Below, piece by piece: positions 2,934 to 44,966 of a stretch of DNA of 46,219 bases. This DNA is from Escherichia phage Rtp, in the sequence record NC_007603.1, one strand, 5' to 3'. The translations under genes were made by a program, and so were the position numbers. The stretch's first letter is position 1. Each line of letters starts with the position of its first letter. The notes below the pieces were generated by a model, which had not been told where the DNA came from, searched no databases, and saw only the letters and a program-made list of their open reading frames with translations.

Positions 2934-3080
2934 ATGATTTACATTCACACTTACTACACAGGTAAGTTTAATAGCGTTAAGCACGTTCGGCTACATGAGA
3001 AGAAGATCGATGCGATTAAGCAACATGAAGTTCTTGGAGGTGTAGTTATTGAGGCAATGAAAACCCAAAACATCAAATAG
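2934..3080 (+). CDS. small ORF (48 aa)
   Basis: ATG 2934 with GAAGG SD; TAG stop at 3078 is shared with the palindrome; below the ORF-track length cutoff. Confidence 0.4.
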   Translation: MIYIHTYYTGKFNSVKHVRLHEKKIDAIKQHEVLGGVVIEAMKTQNIK

Positions 3081-3120
3081 CACGAATTGCTAAAACAGTA
3101 CCGGGGTAATTTGTTATAGT
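3078..3120 (+). promoter_or_regulatory. palindrome-promoter cassette
   Basis: TAGCACGAATTGCTAAAA at 3078; 22-bp spacer; TATAGT 3115-3120 followed by TACCCCATCGACAAC leader. Confidence 0.5.
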
Positions 3121-4298: not shown

Positions 4299-4535
4299 AT
4301 GTTCGGACTAAATGACGCATACTTTAACGCGGTAAAACGCCAGGCAGACAAGCTAAATGATGAGTACAGCAAGCTGGGCGCAAAGAAGAAAGATGATAAG
4401 GTTGTTGCCGCACTAATCACACAGATTTGGGGTCCAGTATCAACCTTAATCGCTCGCGATAAATTCGTGTGGATTGCGGGTTATAGAAAAGGTCGCGTGG
4501 GTCATGACGAGAATGGGAATAGTCTTTATGAGTGA
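4299..4535 (+). CDS. hypothetical protein (78 aa)
   Basis: ORF track; SD AGGAGATTGAGAC upstream. Confidence 0.5.
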   Translation: MFGLNDAYFNAVKRQADKLNDEYSKLGAKKKDDKVVAALITQIWGPVSTLIARDKFVWIAGYRKGRVGHDENGNSLYE

Positions 4536-4614
4536 GTTAACAATCTGGTTTATCGCGGGGCTGATTGCTTGGGGTTACTTTTTAATCGCTTAGATGGAGA
4601 TTGTTAAAAAGAGC

Positions 4615-4643
4615 TTGCATCACTGAGTGGAACTATCTAATAT
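4615..4643 (+). promoter_or_regulatory. sigma70-like promoter (TTGCAT-17bp-TAATAT) upstream of the tRNA region
   Basis: Hexamers read directly; no ORF in the following 250 nt before the tRNA. Confidence 0.4.
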
Positions 4644-4892
4644 TAACCACGTAGACAAACGAGGCCACCAAGTGGCAACGGCGCACGGAGCGCACTACAC
4701 GGTAAGTCCGTAGCTCATTAATTAGCGTATGCGGCGCATAAAATCCCACATGGGACTTGTAAGACCTAGCGCAAATAGGCCGACATGTTCCAAGTCGAAA
4801 AAACTGACCGGACCTGAGCATGTCACTAAAGTAGCTCTATGTTAATCGGTCGTTACAGGCGACCCCGGAGCCGTAACCGGGACTCATTCAAA

Positions 4893-4969
4893 GCCCCGCT
4901 AGCTCAATTGGATAGAGCAACGACCTTCTAAGTCGTAGGTTACTGGTTCGAATCCAGTGCGGAGCGCCA
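4893..4969 (+). tRNA. tRNA-Arg (anticodon UCU)
   Basis: Hand-folded cloverleaf: acceptor GCCCCGC/GCGGAGC (one C-A mismatch), D-arm GCTC-AATTGGATA-GAGC, anticodon arm ACGAC-CTTCTAA-GTCGT, T-arm ACTGG-TTCGAAT-CCAGT, encoded CCA. Confidence 0.7.
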
Positions 4970-4996
4970 AGCTAAACCAATAATCCTGGGGGATTT

Positions 4997-5182
4997 ATGA
5001 AAATTGTAACATTTATCGTAAAAGATTCAGAAACAGGCTCCGTTCAGAAGTTTAACGCAAAGATGGACTTCACGAAAACCCGAGTTATCAAAGGCTCACT
5101 TAATGGAGTTTCTGTATCAGCGCAGCTCCCGCATGGCTTCGAACACTTATTCGGAAAAGAGTCATCAAATGACGATGAGTAG
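4997..5182 (+). CDS. hypothetical protein (61 aa)
   Basis: ORF track; SD GGGGGA upstream. Confidence 0.45.
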   Translation: MKIVTFIVKDSETGSVQKFNAKMDFTKTRVIKGSLNGVSVSAQLPHGFEHLFGKESSNDDE

Positions 5183-5366
5183 CTTGTGGGATGTGAAGTT
5201 GTCCATTCGCTTAATGGGCCGCTCGTGCAAGAATTGCACTCAAGATTACATCGCGTCAGTTGCCGCAATCAGCGCTGAGGATGCGGTAGAGAAAGTAAAG
5301 GAGTTGTCGGGCGCTGACCCTGATACTCACAAATTCTTAGTAGCTTACGTTCGTGAGCGAAAGTAA
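5169..5366 (+). CDS. hypothetical protein (about 65 aa; start uncertain)
   Basis: ORF track 5103..5366 trimmed to in-frame ATG 5169 overlapping the end of the upstream ORF. Confidence 0.35.
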   Translation: MTMSSLWDVKLSIRLMGRSCKNCTQDYIASVAAISAEDAVEKVKELSGADPDTHKFLVAYVRERK

Positions 5367-5409: not shown

Positions 5410-5433
5410 AGCCCTCGCTTGAGGGCTTTTTTT
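5410..5433 (+). terminator. rho-independent terminator
   Basis: GCCCTC-GCTT-GAGGGC hairpin followed by a T7 run. Confidence 0.6.
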
Positions 5434-5443
5434 CGCCTGCATG

Positions 5444-5472
5444 TTGACAATAATATATGGGTGCGTTAGTAT
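5444..5472 (+). promoter_or_regulatory. near-consensus sigma70 promoter (TTGACA-17bp-TAGTAT)
   Basis: Hexamers read directly. Confidence 0.5.
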
Positions 5473-5744: not shown

Positions 5745-5768
5745 AGCCCCTTAATTGGGGCTTTTTTA
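5745..5768 (+). terminator. rho-independent terminator
   Basis: AGCCCC-TTAATT-GGGGCT hairpin plus T6. Confidence 0.6.
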
Positions 5769-5812
5769 CGCCTGTAATATGGTATAATCTACCATCAACA
5801 AAGGAGGATTAA

Positions 5813-6319
5813 ATGAGCAAAGCAGCATTAAAGATGGGTGAGGGAAATTTCAAGGCGCTCTACAACAAGAAGTATGGCGACATTGCTATGGTGGCAATCA
5901 ACCGCAAGTACACGCCTGAGGAGGTTTTCGATTTCGCCGTTCGATACTTCTCCTGGGCAGAGAGTGCAGCAATCAAGGCAGCCGAGACAGCGTCATTCCA
6001 GGGCGTAGTAACTGAACACCTCATACACAAGCCTCGAGTGTTCACCTTAACGGGTTTGGCGCTCTTCATGGGTGTTAACATCAATAGATTCGCTCGCTGG
6101 CGTACTGAGGCTGGATACTCTGATGTGATGGAATTCATTGATAACGTAATCTACGAGCAGAAATATCAGCTTGGTGTTGCAGGCATCATTAACTCCACCA
6201 TTGTTGGTAAAGAGTTGGGAATCGACAAGCCGCAGGAGATCACCATTAGCAATAACTCTACGGCTAACGATGTTGATAGCATGAAGGAAGCGCTTGAATC
6301 TGTGATTGGTAAGCTGTAG
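5813..6319 (+). CDS. putative terminase small subunit
   Basis: 168-aa ORF immediately upstream of the large terminase; SD AAGGAGG; extended -10 TGgTATAAT upstream; call by position and size only. Confidence 0.5.
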   Translation: MSKAALKMGEGNFKALYNKKYGDIAMVAINRKYTPEEVFDFAVRYFSWAESAAIKAAETASFQGVVTEHLIHKPRVFTLTGLALFMGVNINRFARWRTEAGYSDVMEFIDNVIYEQKYQLGVAGIINSTIVGKELGIDKPQEITISNNSTANDVDSMKEALESVIGKL

Positions 6320-6364
6320 CACTTTTTGTTAAAAGAAGAGGCCCAATCAATGAGATAATGGGCC
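6317..6364 (+). promoter_or_regulatory. palindrome-promoter cassette (variant TAGCACTTTTTGTTAAAA)
   Basis: TAG shared with the terS stop; 22-bp spacer; GATAAT 6354-6359 inside inverted repeat GGCCCA/TGGGCC. Confidence 0.45.
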
Positions 6365-6387: not shown

Positions 6388-6864
6388 ATGAATTGGCATG
6401 ATATTTTTGATTATGATGGATGTAATTTATACAGAAGGGATTCTGGAAAAAAGGCTGGAACAAAAGCGGGCCCTAGAGGTTACATTCAGTGCAGAGTTGG
6501 TGGTGGACTACCTAAGGTTTATGCTCACAGGATTATATGGGAGATGCACAATGACAAGATACCTAACAGCATGGTTGTTGACCACATTAACCACATATAC
6601 GACGACAATAGAATTGAAAACCTAAGGTTAGTAACAGTTAAGGAAAATTCTAGCAACATTAAGAGATCAAAGAGAAATACAAGTGGCATACAAGGAGTTA
6701 GGAGAAGGAGTGATAACGGAAATTGGTACGCGGACTTAAGAGTTGATGGAAAGCTAAGGCAAATGCCAATGCGACATTGCTTTGAAGACGCAGCAGCCGA
6801 TAGGATATATCTTGAAGTGTACCACGGGTTTCATCCAAATCATGGAGCAATAGTAAATGAGTGA
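6388..6864 (+). CDS. HNH endonuclease with AP2 domain (homing endonuclease-like)
   Basis: HRIIWEMHNDKIPNSMVVDHINHIYDDNRIENLRLV motif; paralog of 21464..21979; sits between terS and terL. Confidence 0.8.
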   Translation: MNWHDIFDYDGCNLYRRDSGKKAGTKAGPRGYIQCRVGGGLPKVYAHRIIWEMHNDKIPNSMVVDHINHIYDDNRIENLRLVTVKENSSNIKRSKRNTSGIQGVRRRSDNGNWYADLRVDGKLRQMPMRHCFEDAAADRIYLEVYHGFHPNHGAIVNE

Positions 6865-8428
6865 CCTAATCGTATGGGATGAGCTGACTCACGCTGAGAA
6901 GATGGCTATAAAGGCCATCTCTGAGCATAGTTTCGAGGGATTCTTGCGTTGTTTCTTCCAGATAACTCAGGGTGAGAGATTTAAAATGAATTGGCATGCG
7001 AAATACCTTTGCCGCGTCATAGATGAGATTCTTGAGGGTAAGAGAAAGGACACCATCATAAACGTAGCTCCTGGGTCAGCCAAAACCGAACTGTTTAGCA
7101 TCCATTTCCCTGTTTATAGCATGATTAAGATTAAGAAGGTTAGGAATCTTAGCTTGTCGTTCTCTGACTCACTTGTTAAGCGCAACTCCAAGCGCGTCCG
7201 CGACCTGATTAAGTCAAAAGAGTTTCAGGAACTTTGGCCATGCTCCTTTGGAACATGCAGGGATGACGAGATTCAGGTTCTGGATGAGAATGGTAAAGTT
7301 AGATTTGAGTCTATATCTAAGGCAATGGCGGGACAGGTGACGGGAAGCAGGGGTGGCTACATGACCGATGATTACAGTGGTTGCATAATGCTGGATGACC
7401 CGCTAAAACCTGATGATGCGCTGAGTAATGTAAGGAGGGAGGCTGTCAACATGCTTCTCAAGAACACAATTCGCTCGCGTCGCGCTAGCTCGGTAAAAGG
7501 GAAGGAAACGCCAATAATTGCTGTGCAGCAAAGACTTCATGTTCTGGATACTAGCCACTTCATGGAGTCAGGACAAATGGGCATCAAGTTCGATGTGGTG
7601 AAAGTTCCTGCCATAGTCACGGAGGATTACGCCGACACGCTTCCTGATTGGATCAAACAACAATTTATTGATGATGTTCTTTCATCACCATTTGTAGAGC
7701 GGGATGGGGTTAAGTATTACAGCTATTTTCCAGCAAAGGAATCAATAGAAGACTTAATGGCCATGCGAGACGCTGACCCTTACACATTCCTTAGTCAGTA
7801 CGCTCAAGAACCCGTAGCGCTTGGTGGCAATCTTATTAACGTGGATTGGTTCCAGCGCCTTAGTGATACATTCAGACCTCCAGCTAAGTACGATTATAGA
7901 TTCATAACTTGCGACACGGCGATGACTACAAAGAGTTATAGCGACTTCTCTGTACTCCAGTTGTGGGGCTATAAGGACGCTAAGATTTACCTGATAGACC
8001 AGCGCAGGGGTAAGTGGGAAGCTCCGGAGTTGGAAGCTGAACTGCTGGATTTCGAGAAGAAATCAAGGTCAACCAGTCAGTCAGATGGCATCCTTAGAAA
8101 GATTATTATCGAGAAGAAAGCATCCGGCATCGGACTCATTCAGTCGGCAGGAAGGGTAATGCGAACACCCATAGAGCCATACGTACCTGATAACGACAAG
8201 CTAACCAGGGTAATGAGCGCACTGCCGCAGATTAAGGCTGGCAATGTAGTTCTTCCAGAATCAGCGCCGTGGTTAAGCGGATTGCTTACTGAGATTGCAG
8301 CTTTTACGGCAGATGACTCGCATAAGCACGATGACCAAATTGACTGTCTAACAATGGCAATCAACCTGGTACTTAACATTGCCGATGATCCTAAGGCTCG
8401 ACTAATGCGCATAGCTGGAATGAAATAG
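6857..8428 (+). CDS. terminase large subunit
   Basis: 523 aa; N-terminal ATPase region and C-terminal nuclease-like region (ITCDTAMTT...DFSVLQLWG), typical terminase architecture. Confidence 0.85.
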   Translation: MSDLIVWDELTHAEKMAIKAISEHSFEGFLRCFFQITQGERFKMNWHAKYLCRVIDEILEGKRKDTIINVAPGSAKTELFSIHFPVYSMIKIKKVRNLSLSFSDSLVKRNSKRVRDLIKSKEFQELWPCSFGTCRDDEIQVLDENGKVRFESISKAMAGQVTGSRGGYMTDDYSGCIMLDDPLKPDDALSNVRREAVNMLLKNTIRSRRASSVKGKETPIIAVQQRLHVLDTSHFMESGQMGIKFDVVKVPAIVTEDYADTLPDWIKQQFIDDVLSSPFVERDGVKYYSYFPAKESIEDLMAMRDADPYTFLSQYAQEPVALGGNLINVDWFQRLSDTFRPPAKYDYRFITCDTAMTTKSYSDFSVLQLWGYKDAKIYLIDQRRGKWEAPELEAELLDFEKKSRSTSQSDGILRKIIIEKKASGIGLIQSAGRVMRTPIEPYVPDNDKLTRVMSALPQIKAGNVVLPESAPWLSGLLTEIAAFTADDSHKHDDQIDCLTMAINLVLNIADDPKARLMRIAGMK

Positions 8429-8468
8429 CACAAATTGCTAAACAATGAGGCCACGGATGGCGTATATT
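8426..8468 (+). promoter_or_regulatory. palindrome-promoter cassette
   Basis: TAGCACAAATTGCTAAA shares TAG with the terL stop; 22-bp spacer; TATATT 8463-8468. Confidence 0.5.
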
Positions 8469-26751: not shown

Positions 26752-27686
26752 TTAATACATATCAGGTAGGTAAGGTAGAGGTATGCCAAGTGTAACGTCT
26801 GGTCTATTTCCAATTCCATATCTAACTATCCTTGTGCCCGTGCCGCTTCTTACGTTACCACCAGTCATTACCACGCCTTTGTTTCTCAACTCCTTGTATG
26901 CAGGTATTGCCCTTGTGTTAAACCCACACCTAAGTATTGGGAAGTATGAGTTTCCTATGCTCTGGTTTGAGCTTGTCAAAGTCACGAACCCAGAAACGAC
27001 AAGAGGCCTCGTTAATGTTGAAAAAGTGCACTGATTGTTCGAGTTGAATATGTTTATTCCAGGCCCTGGGGTTGGCGCAACTTGCTGGAATATTATTAGA
27101 TCAAGAGTTACGCTACCAGGGGTATTCCCAGTATCTTTTGTATTTATATTCGTGCAATATAGAGTTCTGTTACCATCAAACTCAACTGAGACACCTGAGT
27201 TATTCCACTTCCCAAAAGGTATTCCAGCTATTGGCATTGTGTAGCTGTTTGTGAATGATACGGTTCCTGAAAATTTGCAAGTAAGAAGCCTATCCCTTGT
27301 TGTTATAGAGGCAAAATCAGTACTGTCAGCAACGTATATACCTTGCCCAGTTGACGCTCTCAATACCTCTACTACAGTTCCCGAAAATTGCGTAATACGG
27401 TCATTATAAGCATTCTCTCCACCAATAGTTATCGTTCCCTGAGTATTGGTTGCTGAAAATCCATTTATATAATAAATCTCAACCCCCCTATCAAGTTCAA
27501 AACTGTAAGCGCCATTTCTTGGTAGTAAGAATTTTGATGAACCATTGCTACCACTTATTGGGAATGTCTTTGTAAATCCTCCGCTAGAAACGTTGAAGTT
27601 ACCAGCAAAAGACAACCCCCTCATCCCTGAGGTTATCGTCATTGGTTTTCGACCATCATTTAGATCAATGTAGATGCCTTGAGCCA

Positions 27687-27687
<1 letters not shown>
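26752..27687 (-). CDS. putative receptor-binding protein (tail tip), G/S/T/N-rich
   Basis: 311 aa; AAGGAG SD; TAATG overlap with the upstream lipoprotein gene; composition typical of fibre or RBP proteins; located after the J-like gene as expected for T1-like RBP loci (from memory). Confidence 0.45.
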
Positions 27688-28000
<313 letters not shown>

Positions 28001-30855: not shown

Positions 30856-33738
30856 TTAAATCAATTTAACAGATCTTAACTCATTACCAGAAGTTGTAGA
30901 TATTGTTGTTGAACTAACTAACGTCCCAGACAATGCAAACGAAATAGCTCCAGTCGATGAGGATCTAGTAGCAAACCTTTGAGGTGAATCGCTTATAACA
31001 CTTATCTTATTTGCTGTAAAAGTATTAGAGCCAGAAAAACCAGTAGTTACAACCAAATCCTGATTGAGTCTAAATCCAAATCCAACAGTAACAGAGGTTG
31101 ACTCGCTCACAGGAATGTTAAGCCCATTTAGCCGCACACCTGAGATATCAAAGAAATCACAAGAAGAAAGAAGCGCCCTTCTTGAAATGCCTGTTGTTAT
31201 TGGTAGCGTACTCTGAGACTGTCCATTGAAGTTACATACAAATCTTGTGTTAATGAAACTAATATCATGATTAACAGAGCCATCAACCGGAGAGGCCGTA
31301 TCAGATGTTGACTTAACAATACCGCCAACAAATTTTATTGCCACAGGTCCATTTGGGTCTGAACCATAGTAAGCTCTAAGCCTTTCAACATTACAATTAA
31401 CCATGTAATAGCTCCCCCTCTGGTTTGTCTCAAATATAGGGTATCTCGAGCTTCCGACAGGTGAAGAGAGATCATATATAGAAACGTTAGGGTTATGAAG
31501 ACTGTTAGCACCCATGAAAACGATATTATTTGATAAAATCCCCTTTATACTTATGTTGGTAGTAAACCTTCCAGTCAATGAGCTTTCAGAATTTGTCATG
31601 TCCGAGAATGGCCCCTTAAACCTTGAAAAATCAATAGTAAGCCCCAAGCTAGCAGATGATGGGAAAGCCGACATGTTAACATCTGATATTGAAACGTCAG
31701 AAGGGAAAAGCAGCGCACCATCTCTACTTGAGTAGAATAAATTACCAGGATGAGAACTGTAGCTTCCTGACTTGAAGTTAAGGCCCTTAATCCTAACTGA
31801 GTTAAACAGAGTGCTCTTTATTGGTGAGCCAGCTACAGGTCCATTTCCTTCATAAGAAATTCCATTTATCAAACCCGTCCCGGTCAGGCCAGTACTTCTT
31901 GTGCCTGTAAAAGTAATGTTATCCATGTAAAGGTTTCCGTCAAAGAAACCTCCAGCGTCTGCCCTTGTTGTTATGATATTCCCATTCGTATATCTAGACG
32001 CATTAAATGCACTATCCCTTATATGCAAATCGCCAAGACCAGTAACAACAACACCACGGGCACCGATATTGCAGTTTTCAATCTTAAGGTAGTTATGGAA
32101 AGGCATGTGAAAGTCAATTCTACTTAGATCACAATTTTCAAAAGTTACGTTTGCGCAGTTGTTACTACCATTTGCGCCCCATCCTTTACCGTTAACCCTT
32201 GCGTTCATAATCCTTACGTTCATTGATTCACCTATTGATAAGGCGTATGAGTAAAGCTCACCAGAAGAATCTCTTGCGTCTGCAACAGACTCGGCAAAAA
32301 GACCATCAACTGTGATATCATATGAGTTAGCTATTGCCAACCTTGTATCGCTAAACCCTTGTGTTATCGGCTTGTTAATAAAAGAAATATCTTTTATTGA
32401 CAACCTTGTAGAATTATTAACATAAACTATCTGATACCGTGTCGAAAGACTTTCATCTATAGTTAAACCCTTGATTTCCTGAGTTGTCTTGTTTATCTTC
32501 AAGGCTCTAACTGATGTAACATTATTTCCAAGATCATACTTCAGTGAGTTCTCCAGATAACCCCTATTGTAAACCCTATTGAGTTCAATTCTTTTCTGAA
32601 CAGAATCCCTATATGTGTACATGTCCTGATTTGTATAAAAAACAATAAAACAACCATCAAGGTCACGATTTTCAGATATAGAGTCGAACAAATTACTTCC
32701 AGCAGTTCTTGATTCATTAGACATGGAGTTAAAAGATGAAACAACAGATGACGAAGCGTCATAAGTTGTAGGTTCCCCGTTGGTTATAGTTATCTGCCCG
32801 GTCCATGAGGATGATGGTTTTATAACAGAGCCTGTAAAATCAGCACTCAATGAACCAATATCAATATAATCGGAACCAGAAACAAGAAAAACACCATCAT
32901 TCTGCTTTATCTTTAGATTTTTGGATTTTGCGTAGTTTATCGCTCGATTTATACCTGAAATATCATTAGTAATACCATCTCCAACACACCCAAAATCATA
33001 GAAACTAACATAACCTTTAGATCCTAGCTCAGACCACGAAGAATCACCAATCCCACCAGAAGAATATGGTGTCGAGTTTTCCGGGACTGTCTTAGGTAGA
33101 TCTCCCATCCATACGTATGACTTTGGCTTACCGGAGTCAAGCCATATCATTTGTTGATTTCTTGACTCTATTACACCTCCGGACTCAAATGATGAAATTA
33201 AGGCACCAGATAATGATTCCGCATAACCCCGTGCAGCTTGTTCTGATGACATTGCTAATCCAGCACTCGCTGCAGCAGAAGCCATATCACCTGCTACCTG
33301 GGCAGCATTCTGCGCAACCTGTGATGACATGTTTACAACATCGCCATACTGATTGTTAACCTGTGTTACTTTAGATTCAAAATCATTAAAGTCAAAGTTG
33401 TTAAATACATCAACTGCATCAGCAACCTCAGTTTCACGTGACTGATAGTAACGAAGAGTCTCAGCAACATCTTGAGCTAATCCCTGAACGGTAATCCCAT
33501 CATGAGCAAGAATAGCGTAACCAGTTCCAGCAGGAACAGTTTCAGAATTAGGGTTATAAACATTAATCTGCGTATCGCTGATGATCTCAGAGATGGTGTA
33601 AATTTTTACTGGCTCAGTTTTAAATACAATGGTGGCACCTACGCGAATCAGTGTAAGCGGTGCTTTCCATGTTGTCCCGACACCAGTCACCTCGCCGTTT
33701 GCAGCTAATGATGCGGATCCCAAGTCATAAATTGCCAT
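30856..33738 (-). CDS. lateral tail fiber / tailspike with right-handed beta-helix (pectate-lyase-like) domain
   Basis: About 960 aa; FYDFGCVGDGITNDISGINRAINYA resembles the pectate-lyase/tailspike N-cap motif; ORF track GTG 33768 trimmed to ATG 33738. Confidence 0.7.
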   Translation of the reverse strand: MAIYDLGSASLAANGEVTGVGTTWKAPLTLIRVGATIVFKTEPVKIYTISEIISDTQINVYNPNSETVPAGTGYAILAHDGITVQGLAQDVAETLRYYQSRETEVADAVDVFNNFDFNDFESKVTQVNNQYGDVVNMSSQVAQNAAQVAGDMASAAASAGLAMSSEQAARGYAESLSGALISSFESGGVIESRNQQMIWLDSGKPKSYVWMGDLPKTVPENSTPYSSGGIGDSSWSELGSKGYVSFYDFGCVGDGITNDISGINRAINYAKSKNLKIKQNDGVFLVSGSDYIDIGSLSADFTGSVIKPSSSWTGQITITNGEPTTYDASSSVVSSFNSMSNESRTAGSNLFDSISENRDLDGCFIVFYTNQDMYTYRDSVQKRIELNRVYNRGYLENSLKYDLGNNVTSVRALKINKTTQEIKGLTIDESLSTRYQIVYVNNSTRLSIKDISFINKPITQGFSDTRLAIANSYDITVDGLFAESVADARDSSGELYSYALSIGESMNVRIMNARVNGKGWGANGSNNCANVTFENCDLSRIDFHMPFHNYLKIENCNIGARGVVVTGLGDLHIRDSAFNASRYTNGNIITTRADAGGFFDGNLYMDNITFTGTRSTGLTGTGLINGISYEGNGPVAGSPIKSTLFNSVRIKGLNFKSGSYSSHPGNLFYSSRDGALLFPSDVSISDVNMSAFPSSASLGLTIDFSRFKGPFSDMTNSESSLTGRFTTNISIKGILSNNIVFMGANSLHNPNVSIYDLSSPVGSSRYPIFETNQRGSYYMVNCNVERLRAYYGSDPNGPVAIKFVGGIVKSTSDTASPVDGSVNHDISFINTRFVCNFNGQSQSTLPITTGISRRALLSSCDFFDISGVRLNGLNIPVSESTSVTVGFGFRLNQDLVVTTGFSGSNTFTANKISVISDSPQRFATRSSSTGAISFALSGTLVSSTTISTTSGNELRSVKLI

Positions 33739-33803
33739 TGTGTAAAGTCTCCATTTGTAAAATAGCACGAATTGCTAAGTTGGATTGTAGCATCTTTCAG
33801 GCA

Positions 33804-38296: not shown

Positions 38297-38481
38297 TTGG
38301 CATCTGCGTAAAAACAAATGGCTTCTTTACACTTCTTGAGGATTATGAAATTAATTTCGATTCAAATGAAATAACAGTGTTAAGCGATGATGGGTGCTAT
38401 TGGTTCCTTAGTTATCAAGGTGATGGTTATTACGGTTGCAGAGATTCAGGCGGAAAAGAGGTTATTTTCTTAGTCGAATAG
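38293..38481 (+). CDS. hypothetical protein (62 aa)
   Basis: ATG 38293 with GGAGG SD and ATGA overlap; TAG stop shared with the palindrome. Confidence 0.45.
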   Translation: MIGICVKTNGFFTLLEDYEINFDSNEITVLSDDGCYWFLSYQGDGYYGCRDSGGKEVIFLVE

Positions 38482-38521
38482 CACTTTTTGTTAAAAATCA
38501 AATCCATGGATGGATTATATT
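38479..38521 (+). promoter_or_regulatory. palindrome-promoter cassette
   Basis: TAGCACTTTTTGTTAAAAA; 22-bp spacer with inverted repeat ATCCATGGATGGAT; TATATT. Confidence 0.45.
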
Positions 38522-44922: not shown

Positions 44923-44966
44923 ATAATACCGCATCCTTGCGATTCTGTTTTAGCAATTCGTGCTAT
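44923..44966 (-). promoter_or_regulatory. palindrome-promoter cassette (minus strand)
   Basis: Minus-strand TAGCACGAATTGCTAAA; 22-bp spacer; TATTAT; leader TTTCCATCGAAACGAAACAACG. Confidence 0.5.

Follow-up and report, generated by a model that had tools for sequence, protein, structure and literature searches.

Phage T4 species 1 and 2 (RNA C and D) are structured non-coding RNAs that are co-transcribed with tRNAs and released by tRNA-processing enzymes. GOLLD and ROOL are likewise phage-borne RNAs and are often found beside tRNAs. In phage HK022, the put element consists of two stem-loops just downstream of the promoter, which make RNA polymerase terminator-resistant in cis. The classic coliphage T1 and its relatives are abundant and have been isolated widely for therapeutic use, yet almost nothing is known about the control of their gene expression. 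Here we analyzed the genome of one such relative, Escherichia phage Rtp (NC_007603.1, Drexlerviridae, Braunvirinae; the whole genome of 46,219 bases is called the window), in which a stretch of ~243 nucleotides (nt) separates a putative sigma70-type promoter from a tRNA-Arg(UCU) gene. The nearest deposited relatives of this Rtp-like coliphage are ZL19 and IME253 (~89% identity). We propose, with moderate confidence, that the locus combines an ordinary tRNA-Arg with an older, Drexlerviridae-wide structured leader RNA, which would act in cis as a regulatory element within one sigma70 transcription unit.

Covariation in the leader RNA

A prediction made earlier from the letters of the window alone (the original prediction) had described the stretch before the tRNA as free of open reading frames (ORFs) and able to hold a second structured RNA. 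Only short ORFs (28-38 amino acids, aa) overlapped 4627-4931. These ORFs were not conserved and the relatives differed there by insertions and deletions of whole hairpins, so that a coding reading was rejected. In all relatives, the preceding ORF is separated from the tRNA by 160-370 nt that carry no annotated gene. When these regions were aligned, conservation started exactly at TTGCAT-17-TAATAT and reached the tRNA, and it was broken only where whole hairpins were inserted or deleted. The leader would start 6-7 nt past the -10 hexamer and end at the predicted RNase P site at the 5' end of the tRNA (4650-4892).

We examined the covariation of base pairs in an alignment of 21 distinct Rtp-type leaders, using an eight-helix structure; the controls were structures in which the 3' partners were slid by 1-3 columns, and 500 shuffles. 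Standard pairs occupied 98.4% of the cells in the proposed structure compared with 26-42% in the slid controls, and pairs with double changes numbered 10 compared with 0-3. Further, the covariation score was 0.241, whereas that of the slid controls was at most 0.051, and none of the 500 shuffles reached the observed score. Compensatory changes supported four helices (H1, H3, H5 and H6; Table 1). We concluded from this covariation that 4650-4892 is a real, well-supported structured RNA and not a spacer, as the original prediction had allowed.

Several conserved pairs of the leader are G·U, which would read A·C on the opposite strand. We therefore assigned the RNA to the + strand and rejected a minus-strand RNA, for which the fold z-score was -0.8. 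Folding of the single sequence was uninformative alone for the whole leader (z = -1.7); the 5' module (4650-4700) gave z = -3.6. A long-range GAG/CUC helix returned by RNAalifold was not conserved in T1 and IME253 and was not adopted. A candidate pseudoknot (CUACU/AGUAG) and a candidate 5' closing helix (GUAG/CUAC) are plausible, although their 5' side is invariant and the alignment shifts.

The covariance-model search that had been proposed for 4650-4892 was run against Rfam 15, and no family reached its gathering score for the leaders of the window and of the T1, TLS-like, KLPN1, XT34 and Rao1 loci. When E-values were relaxed, the sole Rfam match touching the leader on the + strand was the Y RNA-like family YrlA (RF02553). 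It was sub-threshold (21.3 bits compared with a gathering score of 69), its alignment borrowed the D arm of the real tRNA, and it was rejected. This match, together with the words AAGUCCG, CAAAUAGG and CAGA..ACCGGCU.UAUC, which by eye presumably resemble conserved regions of RNase P, could be taken to mean that the leader serves the adjacent tRNA as a miniature RNA of the RNase P type or of the Y RNA (tRNA-mimic) type. However, no RNase P model matched in 4540-5000 at E <=10, and the local hairpins with covariation are incompatible with a long-range P4-type helix. Further, the leaders of Rao1, ES, T1 and Nouzillyvirus lack the CAAAUAGG element, and most leaders have no adjacent tRNA. We regard this explanation as extremely improbable.

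Tandem Repeats Finder (minimum score 30) detected nothing in 4500-5100; repeat-based phage RNAs, such as type III antitoxin arrays and CRISPR-like arrays, were rejected on the lack of tandem direct repeats in this region. No description of the leader RNA was found in the literature, although a catalogue of ~10,000 candidate phage RNAs lay outside that check and may include it. A re-annotation of phage TLS, in which only three promoters could be recognised between genes, reported a 21-nt direct repeat and no leader RNA (PMC11447400). As far as we found, the leader is thus a previously undescribed RNA family.

Distribution of the leader and placing of the tRNA

Distant loci were reached by sensitive nucleotide search and by protein search with the 60-aa gene downstream of the tRNA. 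The same arrangement was present in T1 and in Tlsvirus, Webervirus and Nouzillyvirus phages, mostly without a tRNA. The shared order was a sigma70 promoter, the 5' word of the RNA (CGUARACAnAMGAG), a hairpin immediately after GAG, AAC or AAG, more hairpins, and the ribosome binding site (RBS) of a small operon. The last hairpin before the RBS carried an A(N)nCGUAA loop in most of these phages. Across the family this loop was closed by at least 8 different stems, and the position of H1 was occupied by at least 9 different complementary stems. The leader RNA is carried by nearly all T1-like phages, T1 included, at the start of one small operon.

We scanned IMG/VR with a two-part pattern (a motif in the promoter spacer plus the 5' word), which replaced a less specific 16-mer scan that had matched mostly unrelated contigs. 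The two-part pattern yielded 89 stretches, nearly all on contigs of ~50 kb. A tRNA was located within 330 nt in only 12 of 98 unique leader sequences. As a control, the same pattern was applied to 100,044 bacterial and archaeal species genomes, where it gave 41 matches in unrelated taxa; an adjoining hairpin followed by AA was present in 1 of these 41 compared with 70 of 86 in the viral set. Nothing similar to the leader was detected in 5,426 E. coli genomes. On the basis of this result and the scatter of the 41 matches, host mimicry and a prophage origin were rejected. In the window genome the leader is single-copy (the 5' motif occurs once).

The leader occurs without a tRNA in T1, the TLS-like phages, Webervirus, and the Nouzillyvirus phages TH27 and XT34, indicating that it is not there for the sake of the tRNA. 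The tRNA junctions were compared among lineages. In Nouzillyvirus ESCO41, a tRNA-Arg and a second tRNA-like sequence lie between the last hairpin and the RBS, which TH27 and XT34 join directly. In T1 and the TLS-like phages the last hairpin is followed by CAAC(A/C)AUUCA(A/G)GAG, and in the Rtp-type phages the tRNA starts directly after CAUUCAAA. Across lineages, the slot behind the leader holds four different tRNA-Arg genes (three of the UCU type and one of the CCU type). From these junctions, the tRNA thus appears to have been inserted later, between the last hairpin and the RBS, both in the lineage of the Rtp-like phages and in part of the Nouzillyvirus phages. Further, the leader was 83-90% identical to that of the window whether the adjacent tRNA was 94-97% or 68-72% identical, which indicates that the tRNA was exchanged while the leader was kept. 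The original prediction had treated the stretch as the leader of the tRNA. A structured RNA does precede the tRNA, but it is an older element, wider than the tRNA across Drexlerviridae and also present in phages without one. Thus, the position of a phage tRNA can follow a pre-existing expression signal and, given four tRNA-Arg genes in one slot, the long "leaders" that precede phage tRNAs deserve a closer look as candidate RNA genes.

The occurrence in tRNA-less phages also bears on whether the stretch has an RNA function at all. It might instead be a DNA-level element (an operator, an origin or a packaging signal), a passive precursor spacer, or the remains of decayed tRNA genes. The motif in the promoter spacer is not transcribed and any action of it would be as DNA; further, words similar to TAGCTC recur upstream of the tRNA. 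However, compensatory changes maintain four helices in which G·U is tolerated on the + strand only, and the element is present once per genome, also in phages without any tRNA. ARAGORN and Rfam detected no tRNA-like remnant in 4650-4892. Accordingly, we consider an explanation without RNA function very unlikely.

A second, unannotated tRNA-like gene was observed just after the tRNA-Arg in EC3a (locus 2355-2453) and ESCO41 (locus ~1452-1560). ARAGORN misses it; the Rfam tRNA model scored it at 41.3 bits in EC3a (threshold 29) and at a sub-threshold 26 bits, as a partial match, in ESCO41. It has the anticodon loop CUUAUAC (UAU, which would read the rare codon AUA) and an extra arm of ~26 nt, and it has no counterpart in the window.

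The tRNA-Arg, the promoter and the operon

The original prediction had also described a 77-nt tRNA-Arg(UCU) that folds cleanly except for one acceptor-stem mismatch. ARAGORN detected a single tRNA in the whole window (Arg, anticodon tct, 4893-4969, + strand), and Rfam RF00005 scored it at 65.2 bits (gathering score 29) with exactly one non-canonical acceptor pair flagged. The acceptor stem reads G1-C72, C2-G71, C3·A70, C4-G69, C5-G68, G6-C67 and C7-G66, followed by the discriminator G73 and an encoded CCA. Six of the seven pairs are thus standard (Watson-Crick or wobble) and C3·A70 is mismatched; one such mismatch leaves 4893-4969 inside the tRNA family. Position 3 is T in 14 of 14 aligned relatives (U3-A70) and C only in the window. 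Thus, the mismatch is present as described, but it is a private T-to-C single-base change of this genome and not a trait of the tRNA family. The change is probably near-neutral; the remaining six acceptor pairs are all G-C.

The D loop of the window tRNA (AAUUGGAUA) is one nt shorter than that of its relatives, which gives a perfect GCUC/GAGC D stem. The identity elements of ArgRS are A20, C35, and U36 or G36, and the window tRNA has A at position 20 and the anticodon U34 C35 U36. The tRNA-Arg genes of E. coli were ~80-90% identical to it, with host-like D and anticodon arms; the cloverleaf, the UCU anticodon, A20, C35 and the encoded CCA are common to the host argU-type tRNA-Arg(UCU). The tRNA-Arg gene is already annotated in Rtp-like phages (EC3a, ACG-M12, SU57 and the Piccard phages), where it carries U3-A70, unlike that of the window.

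Codon usage agreed with the anticodon, which had been read as serving AGA and AGG. In the 41 window ORFs of at least 100 aa, these two codons made up 243 of 589 Arg codons (41%; 20.9 per 1000 codons), and they were concentrated in large late proteins, namely tail proteins of 921 and 1136 aa and the large terminase. In E. coli, AGA and AGG are only a few percent of Arg codons, and the usage of the phage is roughly six to seven times as high. This difference fits the usual role of a codon supplement; on codon counts, the tRNA would supplement the decoding of AGA and AGG, and this part of the locus would be known and ordinary. AGA and AGG reached 79-94% of Arg codons (genome mean, 41%) in the ORFs at 6388-6864, 26752-27696 (-) and 30856-33768 (-). 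The first of these is an HNH-endonuclease-like insert between the terminase genes. These ORFs may be recently acquired genes, or the two on the minus strand may be spurious calls.

A sigma70-like promoter had been predicted at 4615-4643, and its hexamers and 17-nt spacer are as described. The window promoter (TTGCAT-17-TAATAT) has 7 of 12 consensus matches, was not listed by a consensus scan and, taken alone, is no better than chance. However, a promoter was located at the identical position in every relative examined. In a simple scan, ESCO41 carried TTGACA-17-TATCTT (10/12) and T1 carried TTGACC-18-TAGTAT (9/12), each with an extended-10 TG. Further, the hexamers lay at a fixed distance from the RNA start, with T(-12) in 63, A(-11) in 66 and T(-7) in 62 of 71 distinct copies. 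This positional conservation supports a sigma70-type promoter that would drive the unit of leader, tRNA and operon. The spacer motif CTGAnYGG was found as CTGAGCGG in T1, CTGACCGG in KLPN1, CTGATTGG in the TLS-like phages and CTGACTGG in XT34 and ESCO41. Its distance to the -10 hexamer varied from 0 to 8 nt, which suggests a DNA-binding regulator rather than a contact of the polymerase.

Two further observations concern the region upstream of the promoter. The direct repeat ATAGCACnnnTTGnTAAAA, which is the element reported for phage TLS (PMC11447400), has 20 sites in the window at <=3 mismatches (2.2 expected), including 2359-2377, 3077-3095, 6316-6334, 8425-8443, 38478-38496 and 44948-44966. 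When the sites were compared with the ORF ends, those at 6316-6334 and 8425-8443 lay just past the stop codons of terS and terL. The leader promoter is preceded by only the 3' half of the repeat (TTGTTAAAA, 4602-4610). Further, a tiny hydrophobic ORF of 21 aa (MSELTIWFIAGLIAWGYFLIA, 4528-4593, + strand) ends 21 nt before the -35 hexamer. Its nucleotide sequence is conserved in most of the Rtp-type relatives, and in EC3a a longer version is annotated as a putative membrane protein.

The window unit consists of the promoter, the leader, the tRNA-Arg, two small ORFs and a terminator (Table 1). The second ORF encodes the rtp17-like protein, which was detected by tblastn in 787 phage records including T1; its gene lay within 1.2 kb downstream of the leader start in 72 of 81 distinct leaders. 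The protein had no significant match in Pfam and belongs to a PHROGs family without an assigned function. Its AlphaFold2 model is beta-beta-alpha-beta (mean pLDDT 82).

Table 1. Features of the leader locus in the window
Feature	Position	Strand	Basis and remarks
-35 hexamer TTGCAT	4615-4620	+	Invariant or near-invariant in 15 relatives; TTGAC(N) in other genera at the same distance from the RNA start
Spacer motif CTGAnYGG (window: CTGAGTGG)	4623-4630	+	Not transcribed; also in loci found independently by protein homology or blastn
-10 hexamer TAATAT	4638-4643	+	TAnnnT conserved by position over 71 distinct copies
Structured leader RNA, ~243 nt	4650-4892	+	Covariation in 21 distinct sequences; no Rfam family
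5'-terminal motif CGUAGACAAACGAG (family consensus CGURRACAnAMGAG)	4650-4663	+	Once in window; common to T1, TLS-like, Webervirus, Nouzillyvirus and Rtp-type phages
H1 GCCAC-CAA-GUGGC	4664-4668 with 4672-4676	+	Double changes at 4 of 5 pairs (Rtp-type)
H2 GCGC-ACGGA-GCGC	4681-4693	+	RNAalifold prediction; pairs hardly vary, covariation neutral
H3 G[U]CCGU/GCGGC, bulged U	4706-4711 with 4731-4735	+	Pair 71-93: G-C, A-U; pair 72-92: U·G, C-G, U-A
boxA-like word GCUCAUUAA	4713-4721	+	In the loop enclosed by H3; putative likeness to boxA
Optional hairpin UCCC-ACAU-GGGA	4744-4755	+	In 10 of 21 Rtp-type leaders; missing from minimal 167-nt forms
H4 CCUA-GCGCAAA-UAGG	4765-4779	+	Invariant where present; absent from Rao1, ES, T1 and Nouzillyvirus leaders
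Lineage-specific insertion, 61 nt, with 9-bp hairpin	4781-4841	+	Otherwise only in JulesPiccard and AugustePiccard
H5 GUCGU-UACAG-GCGAC	4849-4853 with 4859-4863	+	Double changes at 3 of 5 pairs: GGCUG/CAGCC vs GGUCG/CGACC, U·G vs A-U
H6 (last hairpin) CCCGG-AGCCGUAA-CCGGG	4864-4868 with 4877-4881	+	Abuts H5; double changes at two pairs (Rtp-type)
tRNA-Arg(UCU), 77 nt	4893-4969	+	ARAGORN and Rfam; CCA encoded; C3·A70 mismatch
First ORF, 61 aa, phrog_16862	4997-5182	+	ORF list and PHROGs
rtp17-like ORF, 60 aa, TTG start, CxxC motif, phrog_2919	5184-5366	+	Gene accompanying the leader
Intrinsic-terminator-like hairpin (5410-5427) and T-run	5410-5434	+	Closes the unit

Terminators at the end of the operon were also present in T1, ESCO41 and KLPN1 (four genera together with the window). 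In the window, a promoter-like site (5444-5472) follows right after the terminator, and another, TGgTATAAT, precedes terS. Two consecutive junctions, at 5410-5472 and 5747-5795, have the order terminator, (A/C)GCCTG, promoter, and they divide the sequence ahead of the small terminase gene into short transcription units, each self-contained. The terminator tails of T1 (TTTTTATGCC) and KLPN1 (TTTTTGTTCC) resemble that of the window. In the locus of Klebsiella phage KLPN1 (1905-1970), Rfam gave a sub-threshold match (29.5 bits compared with 50) to isrK over the terminator of the leader operon. isrK is a prophage-borne Hfq-binding RNA, and the match probably reflects terminator similarity only.

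This organization is relevant to the possibility that the leader is a processive antitermination element, either an RNA similar to HK022 put or part of a Q-like loading site, in which CTGAnYGG and the conserved first stretch of the transcribed sequence would function as DNA. The element is positioned directly at +1 of a conserved promoter that contains a conserved, non-transcribed motif in its spacer. Further, H5 and H6 directly abut, terminator-like hairpins are located inside or after the unit, and the unit lies just upstream of a rightward block of ~21 kb of packaging and structural genes. However, the next units possess their own promoter-like sites after each terminator, so that read-through is not required. 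A put-like tether would be broken once RNase P cut at the tRNA, and a purely DNA-level site of the Q type leaves the covariation of the hairpins unexplained. The likeness to put and qut is one of layout. On these grounds we judge antitermination to be quite unlikely.

Possible roles of the leader and comparison with known systems

In the reading that we favor, the leader RNA would start at or near +1 with a near-invariant single-stranded 5' word (CGUAGACAnAMGAG), followed by a hairpin of variable sequence, variable middle hairpins, and the hairpin with the A(N)nCGUAA loop just before the RBS of the rtp17-like operon. It would act in cis as the regulatory 5' leader of this operon, perhaps as a platform to which a protein or RNA polymerase binds and which sets the level of transcription or translation. 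In some genera, the last hairpin may also serve for termination or attenuation. Cleavage by host RNase P is expected at 4892/4893 in Rtp, where the leader would gate the output of the tRNA as well. We favor a role in cis because the leader sits between the conserved promoter and the first RBS of the same operon, because the conserved RNA reaches the Shine-Dalgarno sequence (CAACCAUUCAGGAG) in the tRNA-less genera, and because a U-run follows the last hairpin in Webervirus and several uncultured groups (e.g., GCCCC-GCUUU-GGGGC-UUUUAUU).

Several results weigh against this reading. H6 of the window lacks a U-run (its tail is ACUCAUUCAAA) and no attenuator is evident in this phage; by a strict rule applied to minimum-free-energy folds, at least 5 U within 8 nt after the last hairpin were present in only 6 of 63 short leaders. 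Because their pairs are invariant, H2, H4 and the inner H3b stay unproven predictions, and we found no covariation in support of alternative folds that exclude each other. The rtp17-like model had no significant match in PDB (PurS and the ribosomal protein LX/L18Ae were non-significant matches). Further, we infer the start site, the RNase P cleavage and the stability of the leader alike. Finally, the leader persisted, and even gained length, once the tRNA had split it from the RBS. This retention argues against a purely translational mechanism in cis and suits a trans-acting RNA equally.

Accordingly, we considered a stable RNA that acts in trans, either as a small RNA with a 5' seed or as a decoy or sponge for an RNA-binding protein of the host or phage. 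Such an RNA would be released by RNase P at the 5' end of the tRNA in the Rtp-type phages, and by termination or processing in other genera. Conservation is highest in a single-stranded 14-mer at its very 5' end, which is kept between genera whose neighboring protein is only ~42-44% identical, and words similar to CGUAA recur at the 5' end and in loops, suiting a seed or multiple protein-binding sites. The Webervirus element is reduced to a classic small-RNA layout, with the 5' word, a single hairpin and a second hairpin that resembles a terminator, and in the Rtp lineage the element survived and grew once the tRNA cut it off from the RBS. However, in T1, the TLS-like phages and Nouzillyvirus the first gene follows the leader with no terminator in between, and thus no defined 3' end exists without processing. 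Further, no target complementarity was identified, and the E. coli genomes contained nothing similar for the RNA to mimic. We therefore regard a stable trans-acting RNA as the main rival of the cis reading, possible but less likely.

The leader could also represent a new class of promoter-proximal regulatory RNA, in which the 5' word and the hairpins with CGUAA loops recruit a factor that switches transcription through the terminators partitioning the genome. This factor might be the polymerase or else a small protein of the phage, for example the rtp17-like protein. We consider this idea unlikely. If it were true, it would couple early expression, tRNA supply and the packaging genes, providing a put- or Q-like logic in this phage family, in which, to our knowledge, no such control has been described.

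The leader is a single-copy RNA element with strong covariation support, which marks one promoter in almost all members of the family and is not represented in the RNA databases. It is short, with clear invariant words and helices, and it occurs in phages that are easily handled (T1, Rtp and Piccard of the BASEL collection), in which its function is directly testable.

Compared with described RNAs, the leader is not matched at the gathering score by the GOLLD, ROOL, YrlA, RNase P or tmRNA models. In layout, it resembles HK022 put, the "6S" leader of lambda PR'-qut-tR' and the boxA/boxB nut sites. Like these elements, the leader begins close to or at +1 of a sigma70 promoter that looks constitutive, contains hairpins along with conserved single-stranded words, and has terminators downstream. 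Further, the loop word of the Rtp-type leaders (GCUCAUUAA) may resemble boxA (GCUCUUUAA). We know of no N or Q homologue in these virulent phages. The leader differs from boxB in that the loops of H1 are not conserved, and the downstream units have their own promoters. The leader would share with T4 species 1 and 2 the character of a structured non-coding RNA within a tRNA transcript. In contrast to the T4 RNAs, the leader of the window is located upstream of protein genes, and in most of its relatives it occurs without a tRNA.

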